Virus record (IMG/VR): IMGVR_UViG_2718217859_000010
Length of the DNA: 64,000 nt
Strand: one strand, 5' to 3'
DNA from: a virus
Taxonomy: Duplodnaviria; Heunggongvirae; Uroviricota; Caudoviricetes
Of this stretch, positions 1-9,000 are shown piece after piece; position 1 is the first letter of the stretch; each line of letters opens with the position of its first letter. The position numbers were made by a program.

Positions 1-3000
1 ATGCCTGCCCCCGTCGTCCTGATCCTTGCGGCCGGGCGTGGAGAGCGCTTTCTCGCCTTCGGGGGAAATACCCATAAGTGTATCGGCTGGCGTCAGTCCC
101 CGGAGGTTGCGCCTTATCGCTGGCCATTTGAAGAAAACGGGAGAACTTTCGACCTTGCGATTGAACCGCAGATTACGACTAATGATCTGCGTCTGATGTT
201 GCAGCTGGCTCTTGTCGGTGAAGGAATAACAATTGCCACTCAGGAAACTTTCAGGCCATATATTGAAAGCGGTAAGCTTGTATCGCTGCTTGATGACTTT
301 CTTCCACAATTTCCAGGCTTCTATCTGTATTTCCCACAGCGTCGCAATATTGCACCAAAGCTCCGCGCCCTGATTGACCACGTCAAGGAATGGCGGCAGC
401 AATTGGCTTAAATGTCTGCACCTGCATTGCCTGATGTCAGAACAGTATTTTGATGAATTGCCAGGGTTACAATGGCACAAATGCGGCACAGGAGGAAACG
501 TGGTGTATTTAAATATGGGGTAAGTCTTTGATTTTAATGGTGCCGATAATAGGAGTAAAACACTCGATTAATCTCGTGTTAATGCCATCACCTACGACCA
601 TTACTAATCGATTGAATCTTATAGAAAAATCATCATTTTCTATGCGTCACAATCAATTTTCACATTACAAACGCTCCGACACTTTAGCCGGAGATTTTAT
701 GAGATACAAGCCTAACCAATACTTAATCTGTGATTCTTACGGTAACTACTATTTAAGGATCACGCTGCCTGTGTATATGAAGCCCTTTTTTGAAGGAAAA
801 AGGACGTTTGTCAGAAGTCTACATACAAGTAATCTTCGTGTGGCACGTAGAAAGCGTGATCAGATTGCAGATGAATACCATTGCTTACGGGAGAGTGTTG
901 CCCCTGTAAACAGCACAATAGAAAACACGCTGGAACTGTTACGCAGTAAGGCTAAATACGCCAAAACAGCTACCAGAGTGCAAGATACAGCGTCTTCGTG
1001 TCCGTCATTGCTTAAAATTCTTGAAATCTACCTGACAATTAACAGCACGAAGAAGAAGCCAGCCACTTTAGCTAAGGCAAGAAAAGCGGTAGAGATGTTT
1101 CTCTCCTACCGTAAAAAGCCTGATATTGCATTGCAAGATGTAAGCCGCACCACTGTTACAGGCTGGATTGAACACATGCAAAAAACTCTTTCACAACAAT
1201 CAATTGCAAATTATATCAGCCCAATGGCCCAGCTATGGGAATTAGCTTCATCACGTTACCACGATGCGCCAGAAAGGGCGCTCTCCCCCTGGCGAGGGCA
1301 TAGGCTTGATGTGGCACAAAGTAGAGAGAGCTACGAGGCATTTTCTAACAAAGAGCTATTGCAGGTGTTGCAAGTATTTTCCGGTAATTCAGCAGAAAAC
1401 AAAGAAATGACGGCTTTGTGTCTTATCGGTTTATATACAGGTATGCGGATCAATGAGATAGCAAGTCTCACAATAGACGATGTGAAAGAGATCGAAGGTG
1501 TGCTGTGTTTTGAAATCACACAGGGAAAAACGAAAGCTGCGGCACGTCTTGTGCCTGTGCATAGCCTTATCACTCCATTGGTGTTATCTCTTCGTGAAAA
1601 GCCTCACAATGGCTTTTTGTTCTATCACGCCAGCATTACAGAGCGTGCTGACGGTAAACGCTCTACGTGGCATACACAACGATTTACAAGAGCTAAACGA
1701 AAGGCTTTAGGGGAAAAGGGAACAGAAAGGAAAGTGTTTCATTCTCTGAGACACGGAGTAGCACAGCTTCTTGATCGAAATCAAATTCCAGAGGACCGCA
1801 TAGCTTTAATGTTGGGCCATCAGCGCGGCAATACAGAAACATTCCGCACATATAGCAAGAATGCAGCTTCTCCAGTAGAGCTTAAAAAATATATTGAGCT
1901 TTTACGCTACCCTGAAATAGAGAAAGGCTTATCAATCAATAAAAAATCAAATTTAAGGCGTAAAACAACGCTATAGACGTAATAAAGAGGCTTCAATATA
2001 GACTGATGCCTCTTTTATGATTATCTCGTTACAGAGCGTTTCATAGGCGTTTAAGGCTATTGTTTAAATACTGGCGTTACAACGTCTTGCCCTGGGCTTT
2101 TTTGATTTTTCTGTTCTGTTGTATTTACCTGCATTTTAACCTGTCCCCCTACAGATTTATTTGGTGCTGTTTTTACCGCAATTGCGCTTGTAGTTGCTTT
2201 AGAGACAAGACGGATTTGCTCAAAATCAAGAGTAAACAATAGACTTTCGCTTGCTTCTTCTTCATAAGACATGCCAACTAACACAACGTTGTCATAATTT
2301 TTTAACTCAGTGACAAGTAGGAAAGGTTGGCGACTGTCCATCAACTGATTTAGGTATTCAAGCATAAGCATACGTCGATTGCCGTTAATTCCCGCATTCT
2401 TAATCATATCGGGATTGAGCTTCAATACGGTTTCAGAGATACGCCCCTGTAATGTGAACTTGTTATTCCGTATTTGAACATGATCACTAACTTCTGATCC
2501 TGATTCGACAGCATAGCTTGTAACGTCTGCATTTCTGCTAATTTTCGTCGATTCCACGCTATCAAATGATAATGCCTGGTAGTCATTGTAAGCAGCATTT
2601 GCACCACTGCCGAGGTTAGAGGCAATGATCGCAAAGCCGTTACCCCCTTTAGTTGTTCTACCGTTGCTATCGTTGCTTGTGCTGTTGATTTTCGCCTCAG
2701 TCGGGCGACCAATGGTTAACGGACCCATTGCCATAATTTGTAATCCTTATTTAAGGGGGCTAAACCGCCCCACAGTGATGATTAATAGGTTGACCCGCCT
2801 GACATAACACCCAGCGTTAATAGCTTGCTAAACTCAGCGGAGGATGCCTTTGATTTGAAGTCGATAAATTCGCTCAATCGTCCGGTGTCTGATTCGATAG
2901 TTAGCGGCACTTCTGCATTTACTTGTAATTCTGGATTGAAGTTAATAACAGGTGCAAAGGTGTAAGAAGGAGCCTTGAGAGCTTGTTGTGCTGCACTCTG

Positions 3001-6000: not shown

Positions 6001-9000
6001 AGTGGAGCAAGATCAACCACTTCATTTCCGATAATCATTATTATTTATTCCTTCTTAAGATGTGAAAACAGAGTGGAAGCCTTCAAGCTGGAAGCCTTTA
6101 GCAGCGAGAGCTGCAATAGCAGCTTCTTTTACAGCGCCTTCGGCATTCAGGGCATCAGCTTTGATGCAAACGAGTCCGGCATTAGCACGAAGCACGTTAA
6201 CTGTTTTATTTGAATCAGCAGTTACGAAGTCAGACACAACGACAAGAACATCAGCGCCGCTAACATATTTAGCGCCGGATGAATCAATGAGGTCGCCGCA
6301 CGTTACATCTTGTGCAAGTGCTGCAAATTTTTTGCTTTCTACAGCCGCGTAAGGGTCGGTTGCATAGCTCACTACGTCAGTGATGCTTTTACGATGTGGG
6401 AAAACATCGCTTAATTTTAAAATAGCCATTATTTTTCCTTAGATTGTTTGATTTGTTGAGCTTTAGCATTAATCAAATCTTGGTGAGATGGTTTATTGCT
6501 TTCAGCCTTATAAAGACGTTCACACTGTTTCTTTAATTCTGTGGGAGTGATGCCAAGCGCGTAGGCTGTAGCATTCAACACATCTTCAGTTAGTGTTAAC
6601 TTTTCATTGCCATATTTCAGGATAATTTCTTGTTTCATTTATATAACGATTCCATTATGTTGGAATTTAATAAATCCCCCAGGCTATAAGAGGTTCAATC
6701 TGACAATAGCGAGGGGGATTTATTAACGTGTCGGGCAATACACAGCGATAAGTAAAACCTTGAGGAGGTTTTAAACGTATCTCTAAGAATGCTTATTAAA
6801 CATGCTTAAAGATAGGTTTAAAGGGTGAACAGATATTCCTGAAAACATGCTCTTAGGAAAACATGCGGAATCAATCAGGAATATCTATTCGGGGCGCGGT
6901 GGCTAACCGCTATCTTTCATGGTGTGGATGCACCAGTCAGATTTTAAGGAATCACTGTTCCAATCTACTCACAGATTAAATTTTAATAGGGATTAACTAC
7001 ACCAACAGTAATCTACCGTTTCAGAAAAAGCTTTTTTACAACCAAAGATTATAGATTTGCAGTCTATAAAACCCGTTTTGCTATCAATATTTCCAAAGGT
7101 TATTGCACAATTCTTAGCTAAACTCTCTCTGCTTGCGGCTAACGCTATGCAGATGATTGTTTTTGACAACAACTTAATAGATTATTCTGTTACTAACTTC
7201 TGTCATTAAATAAGAGTTTAATGATGTTAGTAAATAGTTATAAAATATAACTATCAGTGTAAGGCTCTTTAATGTTTTCGGACAAAATAAGGAGCTTTAG
7301 GATAAGCATAGATGAAAATAAGAGCGGGAAGGGCAAGGAGATAACACCTACCCGCTTTTATCAAAAATTAAGCACAATGCCTAACAACATTCATCAACAC
7401 AACGTAGAAACAATCAACAATCAAAGAGGGAGTTATGATTATTCTAAAACTTCTTGAGGGGATGGAAGGTAATATTTGTTAGAGGTTAATGCCACTCAAC
7501 CTTTGAGGCTATCACCTTCCATATGCAGGGATTTATGACAGTAGAAGGATTAACACCAGTCAAAACCTTTTTATCTACCCCTAATATTATTATATAATGA
7601 AATCGTTATAAATGCAAATGATTTTCATTATCATTTAGAGAAAATAGCACTTTTTGCTAAATCATCTACTAATTGCTGAATCTCTTCACTTGCAGCCTTT
7701 AACGTGCTGGCGGTGTCTGTGATGGTTTGAGTGCACATCTTGGCATCGTCCTCAATTAGCTCTAAATCGCTCACCAGAGAGATAAAATCGTCAAGGCTTA
7801 CATTCACCTTCATTAAGCTAATAACGCATTGAGAGAGCGTGTAATCGCATAAATCTGAATAGGCTTGATTTATTCTTGTTTGTAGTGAGATAGTCAGATC
7901 TAAAAGTTGTTCCATTGCATTGCTAATATCTTCTTCCATTATGCGGCTTCTCCTTGTAATGCATCATTAATCATATTCAATACGATGTTAAAAGGTGTCT
8001 TGAGCGTCAGCACTTCATCACGATAACGCTCTAATGCTTCGTAGTCTTCTGTTTCTTTTGCCAGTCGGATTAACTCAGCATAGTTTTTTGCATCAGACAG
8101 GATCATCTGAAATAATTGTGTTTCTTGAATATAGCCAATCATTATTTTTCCTTTTTCGAATATTTTCATTGGGCGCTTATACATACACCCATCATTTTAT
8201 TAGTTAGAACGTTTGTTAGAAGCTAATGTATCTTCTAAATGAGCCATCAGATCGACTTCCGATGCACCACCTACACAATTATTGAAAGCGTTAAATCCCA
8301 AAAAATGATGATAGGAGCTAAACCCTAAAAGTTGCCAACGCTTCAGAGTGCCATCAGAAATTATTGTTTGTTTTCTTGTTCTTGGGCGAAAGTAAACGCC
8401 TGGCATTGACTGGATTATTTCTAATTCTTCATCGCTTAAAGGTGGAGATTCTGATTCAAGAATAAAGATTATCTCTTCCCCTGGATCGTTATTGGTGTGT
8501 GTCGGTGGACGTTGTCTTTTTGAATTGAAATTACTGTTTTTTTCAATACGTTTTAAGTTATTCTTTTTCTTTCTTCCCATTTTCCCTCTTTTTATGTGGA
8601 TTATAAAAACTTGATGCCATTGTTACGATGAATATCGCCATAAATGCATTTGCCATATGTATTGCCCGATCTGTTGTTATTGATTGTTTGTGATAAACAA
8701 TTCAAAATTTTTATTTAACTTCAGAAGACGAAATGTAGTGCTGTTAATCCCTTCATAATCCAGCACACCGAACGATGTAAAATGATTTAACCAATGATTG
8801 ATGTGTTGTGCGCTGTAGCCGCCTAAACTACAAAAGCTAACCACTGTCGGTGGTGAGAACTCTATGTCCAAGACAGCTTTTAAAATGTGGTATCCGCTCT
8901 CAGTTATTTCAATAGTTTTGTTTCCTATAGTGATGTTATAAGTCATTTATTCTCCTTAGAATGGTATCGAATCGTATATTTCACTTTTTTCTCTTAGAGA

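Follow-up and report, generated by a model that had tools for sequence, protein, structure and literature searches.

What kind of element keeps its own capsid and tail genes beside an integrase and carries none of the machinery needed to fill a virion with DNA? This question is raised by a 12.7-kb island near one end of a 64,000-nt stretch of Escherichia coli chromosome (IMG/VR record IMGVR_UViG_2718217859_000010, assigned to Caudoviricetes; the whole stretch is hereafter called the window), where it occupies the tRNA-Thr gene thrW. The initial annotation, made by eye, had recognised between positions 2057 and 6638 a cluster of capsid-, decoration- and tape-measure-like genes, and had left two readings open, namely the remnant of a prophage that has undergone heavy deletion, and a satellite-like island retaining a subset of morphogenesis genes. 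It is the satellite that we favour, because the gene set is conserved in 27 loci, appears to be under purifying selection and is accompanied by what looks like a copy of a helper genome terminus, while the remnant half of the proposal found no support. On balance, the 12.7-kb element is probably an integrative satellite of an undescribed family that parasitises virulent Phapecoctavirus phages.

Capsid and tail-core genes

Open reading frame (ORF) calling returned five minus-strand ORFs of 225, 613, 342, 124 and 69 amino acids (aa) within 2057-6638, just as the initial annotation had drawn them (Table 1), and profile and solved-structure searches mark three of their products as virion components. 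The capsid-sized gene does encode a capsid protein: the 342-aa product matches the Pfam family PF03864 Phage_cap_E (3.1e-18) over residues 18-341, and its family profile matches Phi92_gp124 (6.5e-18) and three other solved capsid proteins, which identify it as an HK97-type (Phage_cap_E) major capsid protein (MCP). The suspicion that the 613-aa coiled-coil protein is a tape measure was equally well founded. In addition to the profile matches of Table 1, the protein aligns end to end, Gly-rich segment included, with the 651-aa tape measure protein (TMP) of phage phiWec188 at 26% identity, and its gene is directly followed by that of the tube initiator; by these matches it is the tail tape measure. 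Its first 27 and last ~41 residues are ~56% identical to those of the phiWec188 protein (counted by eye) against 26% overall, a pattern that would be expected if the ends that dock into the tail had been retained. For the 225-aa protein no function had been offered. Besides its Dit_like domain, sequence matches in the PDB to Phi92_gp135 (2.5e-54), to a chain named 'Tube initiator protein' (9cuy_K, 3.3e-10) and to the Pam3 tube initiator gp17 (6e-4) identify it as a tail-tube initiator of the Dit-like type.

The decoration call of the initial annotation is weakly supported. The 124-aa gene has the position and the size of the 130-aa phage head decoration gene (phrog_2680; Phi92_gp123), directly upstream of the MCP gene, and the top fold matches of its weak AlphaFold (AF2) model (pLDDT 63), themselves weak, are capsid decoration proteins of ~120 aa in both the viral and the PDB libraries (TM ~0.33), among them a BFVD 'head decoration' entry (E 0.026) and the capsid chains of Sf14/Sf11 (E 0.05-0.4). 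At the sequence level, the protein has no significant similarity to the phage decoration protein and no relatives outside the island family. A decoration role, judged from gene position and a low-confidence model, is plausible but not established. One further likeness lies at the C-terminus, where ...VFTS-COOH is common to the 124-aa family (6055-6429 in the window) and to the phage head decoration protein (L002 23123-23515); F, T and S are invariant across the island family, and the shared VFTS may be a capsid-binding or processing motif.

Two small ORFs complete the cluster. The 65-aa ORF has homologues of 62-66 aa at the same position in the islands of Buttiauxella, Kluyvera, Scandinavium, Citrobacter and Serratia, and shows no similarity to the 82-aa phage protein encoded upstream of the phage TMP gene; as for the 69-aa ORF, the islands of Klebsiella and Serratia have ORFs of similar length (66-74 aa) at this position. 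Neither of them, nor the 60-, 81-, 89- and 102-aa ORFs elsewhere in the island, matched any family, PDB or phage protein.

What the island does not carry is as telling as what it does. Beyond the structural ORFs named above, the integrase is the sole further ORF of more than 225 aa between the attachment (att) repeats, and scans with Pfam, PHROG and NCBIfam recognised no terminase, portal, protease or tail tube. A six-frame search with all ORFs of the 40-kb structural region of the Phapecoctavirus phiWec188 recovered the same three homologues and no pseudogene debris. ORF sizes, profile scans and six-frame search thus agree with the initial annotation that these genes are missing between the repeats. 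Terminase, portal, protease/scaffold, neck, sheath and tube genes are all missing, as are the other genes of the baseplate, and the island thus lacks genes essential for making virions on its own.

The gene set is nevertheless no peculiarity of this chromosome. The architecture of integrase, tape measure and capsid genes recurs in 27 loci, which come from metagenomes, from E. coli and from eight or more further genera of enterobacteria. The capsid homologues, 342-345 aa long and 38-99% identical, come from E. coli, Klebsiella, Citrobacter, Enterobacter, Cronobacter, Dryocola, Serratia, Buttiauxella, Kluyvera and Scandinavium. Wherever the contig reaches (one of the 27 loci ends before it), the tape measure gene starts ~1.3 kb downstream of the start of the capsid gene; a Dit-like gene follows it in 20 of the 27, and in most of the 27 loci an integrase lies ~3-5 kb downstream, next to the TMP or Dit gene. 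Between capsid and integrase, no terminase or portal was recognisable in any of the 27 loci. Further core genes encode proteins of 65, ~122, 126 and 60 aa, and the integration sites, tRNA or other, differ between genera. Pairwise dN/dS, rough values with dS saturated, was lowest for the capsid protein (~0.10) and the initiator (~0.1), while the 124-aa protein gave 0.15-0.19 and the tape measure 0.22-0.28; with dN far below dS throughout the structural genes, this set is, as judged from the substitution pattern, under purifying selection.

Within the species, megablast against 5,426 complete E. coli genomes found some part of 2057-6638 in 576 of them and the regulatory region in 721, and, with megablast or blastn, family sequences are carried by ~5-13% of complete E. 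coli genomes. The pattern among them is mosaic, in that the tape measure/initiator and capsid modules diverge independently. In two IMG/VR contigs of E. coli (L036 and L041) the tape measure gene is split into halves of 326 and 322 aa with an opposite-strand ORF of 301 aa between them, and some copies are therefore inactivated.

The terminus-like site and its phage relatives

When 50,697 phage records were searched by tblastn, MCP, TMP and initiator all had their nearest phage relatives among the Stephanstirmvirinae (Phapecoctavirus/Justusliebigvirus), myoviruses of ~150 kb: the MCP shares 25% of its residues with Phapecoctavirus MCPs in a full-length alignment, the phage matches of the TMP are confined to Stephanstirmvirinae-type records, and the initiator has 49-53% identity to the product of the Phapecoctavirus gene that comes directly after the tape measure gene. 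The gene order is also that of the phage. In phiWec188, portal, protease, a 372-aa protein, decoration and capsid are succeeded by ~6 kb with genes for connectors, sheath, tube and chaperones, after which come tape measure, initiator and hub, and in the island decoration and MCP genes are followed by TMP and initiator genes in the same order, the intervening ~6 kb being absent with no gene debris. Since the Stephanstirmvirinae are described as lytic, a decayed lysogen of theirs is an unlikely source of the cluster. Nor is the cluster a fragment of a known complete prophage, which the initial annotation had held to be conceivable: its closest phages are these virulent ones, at 25-53% identity, and the lambdoid prophage in the neighbourhood is unrelated.

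A second search, in which the non-structural half was compared with the phage records by blastn, revealed an 80-nt site in the non-coding DNA just after the serine recombinase gene, as well as the match to phages inny and muut described further below. The site (11959-12037) is 81-82% identical to positions 273-357 of phage Schickermooser and is matched in 65 phage records, all of them of the Phapecoctavirus type (E 3e-13); in the phage records that start at the physical genome end, the matching sequence lies at ~273-357. The terminal repeat of Schickermooser comprises positions 1-329 and is identical to the last 329 bases of the record, the published terminal repeat length being 328 bp (PMC6563267), and a 342-bp terminal repeat was determined with PhageTerm for the related phage BME3 (PMC12210895). 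Because the Schickermooser repeat ends at 329, the match spans the mature right end of the phage genome.

At the boundary itself, the phage reads ...TTCGCGTTA|AGCAC and the island ...TTCGCGTTA|AACAT, and the bases flanking the cut position are conserved in islands and phages. Aligning five island variants with four phages gave the shared core TGATATTT-GAATTGTCGCTGCGTGGACCTGACGG-TTCGCGTTAA-ACGT-GCGCC, and the conserved core within the 80-nt site is TGATATTTGRGAATTGTCGCTGCGTGGACCTGACG. Taking these features together, we read the 80-nt sequence as a mimic of a packaging or cleavage site, and as a candidate only. It is present in 266 of the 5,426 complete E. coli genomes and, among the matches listed, every E. 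coli site overlaps the end of the recombinase gene. For neither this site nor any other part of the island was there an Rfam match or significant folding that would indicate a structured RNA or DNA. In a variant E. coli site (L020, Z1323CEC0003, 9001-9102) the flanks, TGATATTTG... and ...TTCGCGTTAAACATTGATCACGT, are kept and the central 30 nt are replaced, the new centre holding a perfect CTGGA-TTT-TCCAG hairpin; such a variant could mark specificity for an unsampled helper lineage. As a side observation, the O104:H4 outbreak-lineage strains HUSEC2011 and FWSEC0009 carry the site, 99% identical, beside the recombinase gene, and hence at least this portion of the island.

A trace of contact with virulent phages lies in the non-structural half of the island. 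Around the 55-aa gene (window 9245-9813), ~240-570 nt are 96-98% identical to the virulent phages inny (MN850601; L008 2501-3124) and muut, and at the protein level the 55-aa product is 98% identical to inny_185 and the 208-aa product 35% identical to inny_184. DNA of such identity in island and phages implies recent recombination, and hence that the two have met in the same cell. In inny and muut the corresponding module consists of two genes, for a 60-aa protein and a 367-aa double winged-helix protein, homologous to the 55-aa and 208-aa pair of the island; within the otherwise divergent larger genes (208 aa and 367 aa) there is a near-identical block of 40 nt. As for the structural half and the boundary, four independent links, namely the MCP, the TMP, the initiator and the terminus-boundary sequence, lead to one and the same virulent phage group.

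Remaining anatomy of the island and its surroundings

The att repeats that the initial annotation had placed on either side of a 12.7-kb element were confirmed as copies of the 3' end of thrW: they are 28 nt long, identical at 25 of 28 positions and 12,722 bp apart. Comparison with strain RM14721 shows the flank of attL to be the side of paoD and a LysR fragment, and both RM14721 and cM8a carry the same island alone, with paoD and the LysR fragment on one side and an intact tRNA-Thr (thrW) followed by proA on the other. In the window, similarity to these island-only strains stops at 13305, within the tRNA. ARAGORN accordingly found no intact tRNA in the window, because a second element follows at 13306. 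The features of the island are collected in Table 1.

Table 1. Features of the 12.7-kb island and its boundaries (window positions; aa, amino acids)
Feature	Position	Strand	Basis or remark
Tyrosine integrase	528..1976 (PGAP start at 699, giving 425 aa)	+	Phage_integrase 3e-17, DUF6538, Phage_int_SAM_5 (Pfam)
attL	534..561		Displaced copy of the tRNA-Thr (thrW) 3' end; direct repeat with 13256-13283
Tail-tube initiator (Dit-like baseplate protein), 225 aa	2057..2734	-	PF21821 Dit_like 1.6e-27
Tail tape measure protein, 613 aa	2782..4623	-	phrog_16051 3e-30; Phi92_gp134 3e-19
Conserved small ORF, 65 aa (PGAP)	4658..4855 (longest ORF to 4933)	-	Lies between the genes for capsid and tape measure
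Major capsid protein, HK97 fold, lambda gpE family, 342 aa	5010..6038	-	Phage_cap_E
Probable head decoration protein, 124 aa	6055..6429	-	Position, size, weak fold matches
First gene of the morphogenesis operon, 69 aa	6429..6638	-	Stop/start overlaps next gene
Non-coding spacer between early and morphogenesis gene blocks	6639..7630		21-nt-arm inverted repeat 6667-6726
Leftward block of seven small genes (102, 81, 126, 89, 208, 55, 60 aa)	7631..10005	-	
Winged-helix replication-initiator-like protein, 208 aa	8956-9582	-	phrog_270, HTH_36
55-aa protein common to phage inny	9634-9801	-	
1.4-kb non-coding region, probable origin/control region	10006..11393		22-bp iterons at 10835-10895
Small serine recombinase, resolvase/invertase type, 185 aa	11394..11951	+	Pfam Resolvase 9e-39; phrog_125 DNA invertase 4.5e-62
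Putative mimic of the Phapecoctavirus genome terminus (right boundary of terminal repeat); candidate packaging/cleavage site	11959..12037	+	blastn to phages
Right arm of island	12038..13255		Small ORFs of 50-52 aa, otherwise non-coding
attR core and 3' fragment of tRNA-Thr (thrW)	13256..13305	-	Direct repeat; RM14721 alignment

The integrase is annotated as a tyrosine-type recombinase/integrase in RM14721. A replicon of the island's own is suggested by the 208-aa protein, which has a weak match to the replication initiation family phrog_270 (5e-8) along with HTH_36 and adjoins the iteron region, and by the 1.4-kb region itself, where iterons lie among many short inverted repeats, the number of iteron clusters varying between islands; this region belongs to no Rfam family. 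The AlphaFold model of the conserved 126-aa protein (pLDDT 52.7) was unusable. An ORF of 50 aa in the right arm (12502-12654) is annotated in related strains.

Replacement of modules is seen at two points of the family. Where the E. coli islands carry the 185-aa serine recombinase, at the end opposite to the integrase, the Klebsiella and Serratia islands (L003 2968-3585; L006 3138-3689) have a tyrosine recombinase of 183-205 aa, about the size of FimB/FimE; that one recombinase has been exchanged for a non-homologous one hints that the need for a second, small recombinase is conserved. In place of the 208-aa protein, the islands of Serratia (L006 6144-7637), Buttiauxella, Kluyvera and one metagenome (L016, L017, L042) encode a protein of 485-497 aa, which in the latter three has its gene ~3.9 kb upstream of that for the capsid protein; the Serratia copy has no Pfam match on record, and the protein may represent an alternative replication module.

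Several repeats deserve mention. An 18-nt exact match in opposite orientation connects window 10396-10413 with the non-coding DNA upstream of the Schickermooser terminal repeat (L011 940-957), and an unusual A/C-rich repeat style (CAACAACCAACAACAAA, CTAACTAAC) is common to island positions 10390-10413/10613-10635 and to the region of ~900 bp upstream of that repeat; the A/C-rich likeness may be chance or a shared protein-binding motif. A 17-nt inverted repeat (6642-6658/7594-7610, 94% complementary) brackets a 935-bp spacer, and, counted from the start of the morphogenesis operon's first gene, the hairpin with 21-nt arms listed in Table 1 stands 30-90 nt upstream; these inverted repeats could serve as an operator, a terminator or an anti-termination target. 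An invertible switch worked by the serine recombinase, either over 10.2-11.35 kb (1.15 kb) or over the 935-bp spacer, was considered and rejected, as the related E. coli loci examined were all colinear, the spacer being colinear in 15 related loci with no inversion.

The remainder of the window, 13306-64000, is the second element, placed at thrW in tandem with the island. An IS66-type unit (13778-16393) is followed there by genes for an omptin (17908-18861) and an alpha/beta hydrolase (19048-20532) and by a lambdoid prophage at ~21.8-43.6 kb. The latter encodes a gpJ-type tip protein (24648-28409), a gpH-type tape measure (30904-33483), a gpE-type capsid protein (36830-37858), an S49 protease, a lambda-family portal and a gpA terminase (41574-43559). 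As a source of the structural genes of the island, or as its helper, this prophage was rejected, its gpE- and gpH-type proteins being without similarity to those of the island.

The proposed satellite, its rivals and known systems

How might such an island make its living? We propose that infection by a Phapecoctavirus would activate the island, which would be excised by its integrase and replicate from its own origin, and that the helper terminase would recognise and cut the terminus mimic, by which the island DNA would be packaged. The island MCP and decoration protein would assemble on the portal and scaffold of the helper into shells sized for 12.7 kb, and such small shells would exclude the 150-kb helper genome. 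The island tape measure and initiator would replace those of the helper within an otherwise helper-built contractile tail, and terminase, portal, protease/scaffold, neck, sheath, tube and baseplate would be taken from the helper, a reduced helper yield being the expected by-product. Activation, excision, packaging, particle formation, small capsids and the incorporation of tape measure and initiator are all steps that we infer. That the outcome is a chimeric virion with satellite shell and tail core, stolen portal, terminase, sheath, tube and baseplate, and DNA packaged at the terminus mimic, and that this island is the founding member of a family making such virions, is a more tentative proposal, on which we ourselves lean slightly towards doubt.

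Several observations speak against a satellite that moves in this way. Metagenome and IMG/VR contigs yielded no attP junction and no packaged form of ~12.7 kb, the matches lying on contigs of 19-76 kb, and Pfam, PHROG and NCBIfam recognised no AlpA, excisionase, primase or small terminase in the island, proteins with Phage_AlpA or primase/helicase domains being absent at E<=1 (Pfam) and E<=0.1 (PHROGs, NCBIfam). Of the helper terminal repeat, the right boundary alone is mimicked, the left boundary not being found in the island. No phage in the collection has a terminus-like match to the Klebsiella island, and none matches the variant E. coli site, and the site occurs in fewer E. coli genomes (266) than does the structural cluster (576). 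Moreover, with an MCP 25% identical to that of the helper, co-assembly with the helper portal, scaffold and protease is an assumption. Finally, we know of no rationale that requires a satellite to carry its own tape measure; commitment of tails to satellite heads, escape from entry exclusion or from defences that target the helper tape measure, and interference with helper tail assembly are speculative reasons for it.

Some of the same observations would suit an island that serves defence only, in which the structural homologues are dominant-negative poison subunits and the terminus-like sequence is a decoy for the terminase, the island itself being never packaged or transferred. The homologues and the terminus copy all lead to a single group of virulent phages, a packaged form was not found, and MCP and TMP, divergent as they are (25-26%), could still dock into phage assemblies through the conserved ends of the TMP; interference of mobile elements with phage assembly is known (PMC11364771, PMC10884400). 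We nevertheless hold this to be unlikely, for a replicon-like module, an integrase and sites that differ across genera indicate an element that moves itself, and a full-length MCP with a decoration-like protein, both apparently under strong purifying selection, exceeds what a poison subunit needs. No PADLOC model of a known defence system gave a meaningful match to any island protein, and, since known satellites combine interference with transfer, a purely defensive island is largely a subset of the satellite we propose. The heavily deleted prophage of the initial annotation, taken as a decaying remnant whose surviving morphogenesis genes would be without present function, is highly improbable. 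Structural genes without terminase or portal beside an integrase at a tRNA site do look like such a remnant, and the tape measure gene is interrupted in two related loci; against it stand the same minimal gene set and order in 27 loci from at least nine genera at 38-99% protein identity, dN/dS values of 0.1-0.28, the want of pseudogene debris of the missing genes, and the fact that the sole phage relatives are virulent with no known lysogeny, the adjacent lambdoid prophage being unrelated.

A satellite with another master has also to be considered. If the real helper were an unsampled phage, temperate or virulent, distant from the Stephanstirmvirinae, the present similarities would reflect ancestry and occasional recombination; MCP and TMP are indeed just 25-30% identical to any sequenced phage, the Klebsiella and variant E. 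coli islands have no detectable phage terminus match, and many family members are without a Dit-like gene. The initiator, at 49-53% identity to Phapecoctavirus, the boundary copy that matches Phapecoctavirus-type records only, and the 96-98% identical DNA, which shows island and inny/muut to meet in the same cells, make such a distant helper quite unlikely. As to the ~80-nt sequence, it might be regulatory, an operator or promoter for an early phage factor by which infection is sensed, and not a packaging or cleavage site. In the phage it is non-coding, lies inside and across the repeat boundary and stands upstream of the first phage genes; one boundary alone is copied, and island and phage share a small protein of 55 aa that, read from its sequence, is possibly DNA-binding. 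On the other side, the conserved block crosses the exact position of the mature end, the bases flanking the cut are kept in islands and phages, and the promoter scan listed no sigma-70-like promoter there, so that we rate a regulatory role as improbable. The integrative satellite of Phapecoctavirus thus remains our preferred explanation.

If the proposal of chimeric virions is true, the island would be the first described satellite of the virulent coliphages of the phAPEC8/phi92 group, and the first satellite known to encode a tape measure. Our full-text search, from which subscription journals are largely missing, found neither a satellite with such a set of genes nor any satellite of Stephanstirmvirinae described in print. 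The phAPEC8-like phages are candidates for phage therapy and biocontrol, and according to the host fields of their records they were isolated against avian pathogenic E. coli, Shiga toxin-producing E. coli (STEC) and Klebsiella; if a widespread element is specialised on them, it would influence, unnoticed, how effective such phages are and how genes are transferred. In E. coli, the exploitation by a satellite of a virulent helper that packages by terminal repeats would then become tractable in a model, and so would the roles of the tape measure beyond tail length.

Set beside known systems, the structural genes resemble the corresponding module of the Stephanstirmvirinae themselves (phi92 gp123, gp124, gp134, gp135; phAPEC8, Schickermooser), with homologous capsid, tape measure and initiator in the same order and a homologue of the terminal-repeat boundary; the phage module differs in that a full baseplate, chaperones, a portal, a protease, a scaffold-like protein, connectors, sheath and tube are encoded between and around these genes, whereas the island, which is integrated by an integrase, has none of them. 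In placing mobile-element genes where they may act on phage tail assembly, the island is like the Tai/Tab defences of prophages and of PICIs (phage-inducible chromosomal islands); those, however, are dedicated inhibitors or sensors and not full-length homologues of tape measure and initiator.

With the PICI-like elements (PLE) of Vibrio cholerae, which prey on ICP1, and the PICMIs (phage-inducible chromosomal minimalist islands) of the Vibrionaceae, the island would share the condition of a chromosomal satellite that virulent phages activate and that parasitises them. PLE, which is restricted to Vibrio cholerae and has RepA, blocks its helper and forms small capsids, remodelling the ICP1 coat protein with the scaffold TcaP, and integrates by a large serine integrase. 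In contrast, the island has a tyrosine integrase, its sole serine recombinase being the 185-aa protein of the resolvase/invertase type, and its hosts are Enterobacteriaceae. PICMIs encode no capsid remodelling genes (PMC10803314). Unlike the island, PLE and PICMIs encode no capsid protein, tape measure or tube initiator, and no sequence relationship to them was seen.

P4, the satellite of P2, is likewise a small integrative element with its own replicon, which in the island is a predicted one, and with a copy of a helper DNA end site, cos in the case of P4. This cos copy lets the helper terminase package P4, which redirects capsid size and obtains nearly all of its virion proteins from the helper. 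The island differs in encoding capsid and tail proteins, whereas P4, which resizes helper capsids by the external scaffold Sid, encodes none; the P4 markers Sid, Psu, Delta, Epsilon, AlpA and the alpha primase-helicase were not found in the island by Pfam, PHROG or NCBIfam. The P4 helper, moreover, is temperate with cohesive ends, whereas the similarities of the island lead to virulent phages with terminal repeats, to Stephanstirmvirinae and not to P2.

The capsid-forming PICIs (cf-PICIs) of Enterobacteriaceae are similar in plan, as integrative elements of ~10-15 kb with their own HK97-fold capsid protein, forming their own capsids and taking the rest from a helper, a plan that in the island is read from its genes. 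The cf-PICIs carry a full head and packaging module (small and large terminase, portal, protease, connectors) and take tails alone, from temperate helpers. Of that module the MCP and the probable decoration protein alone are present here. Unlike cf-PICIs and Gram-negative PICIs, the island is without terminase, portal, protease, connectors, AlpA and pri-rep, has two tail-core proteins, and has virulent relatives. In this analysis, then, the island would combine a P4-like end-site mimic, a cf-PICI-like capsid of its own and a PLE- or PICMI-like virulent target, and it falls outside the definition of all four. P4, PICIs, cf-PICIs, PLE and PICMIs steal either everything or tails only; an element that brings its own capsid shell and tail core and no packaging machinery would stand between these and extend the repertoire of satellites.

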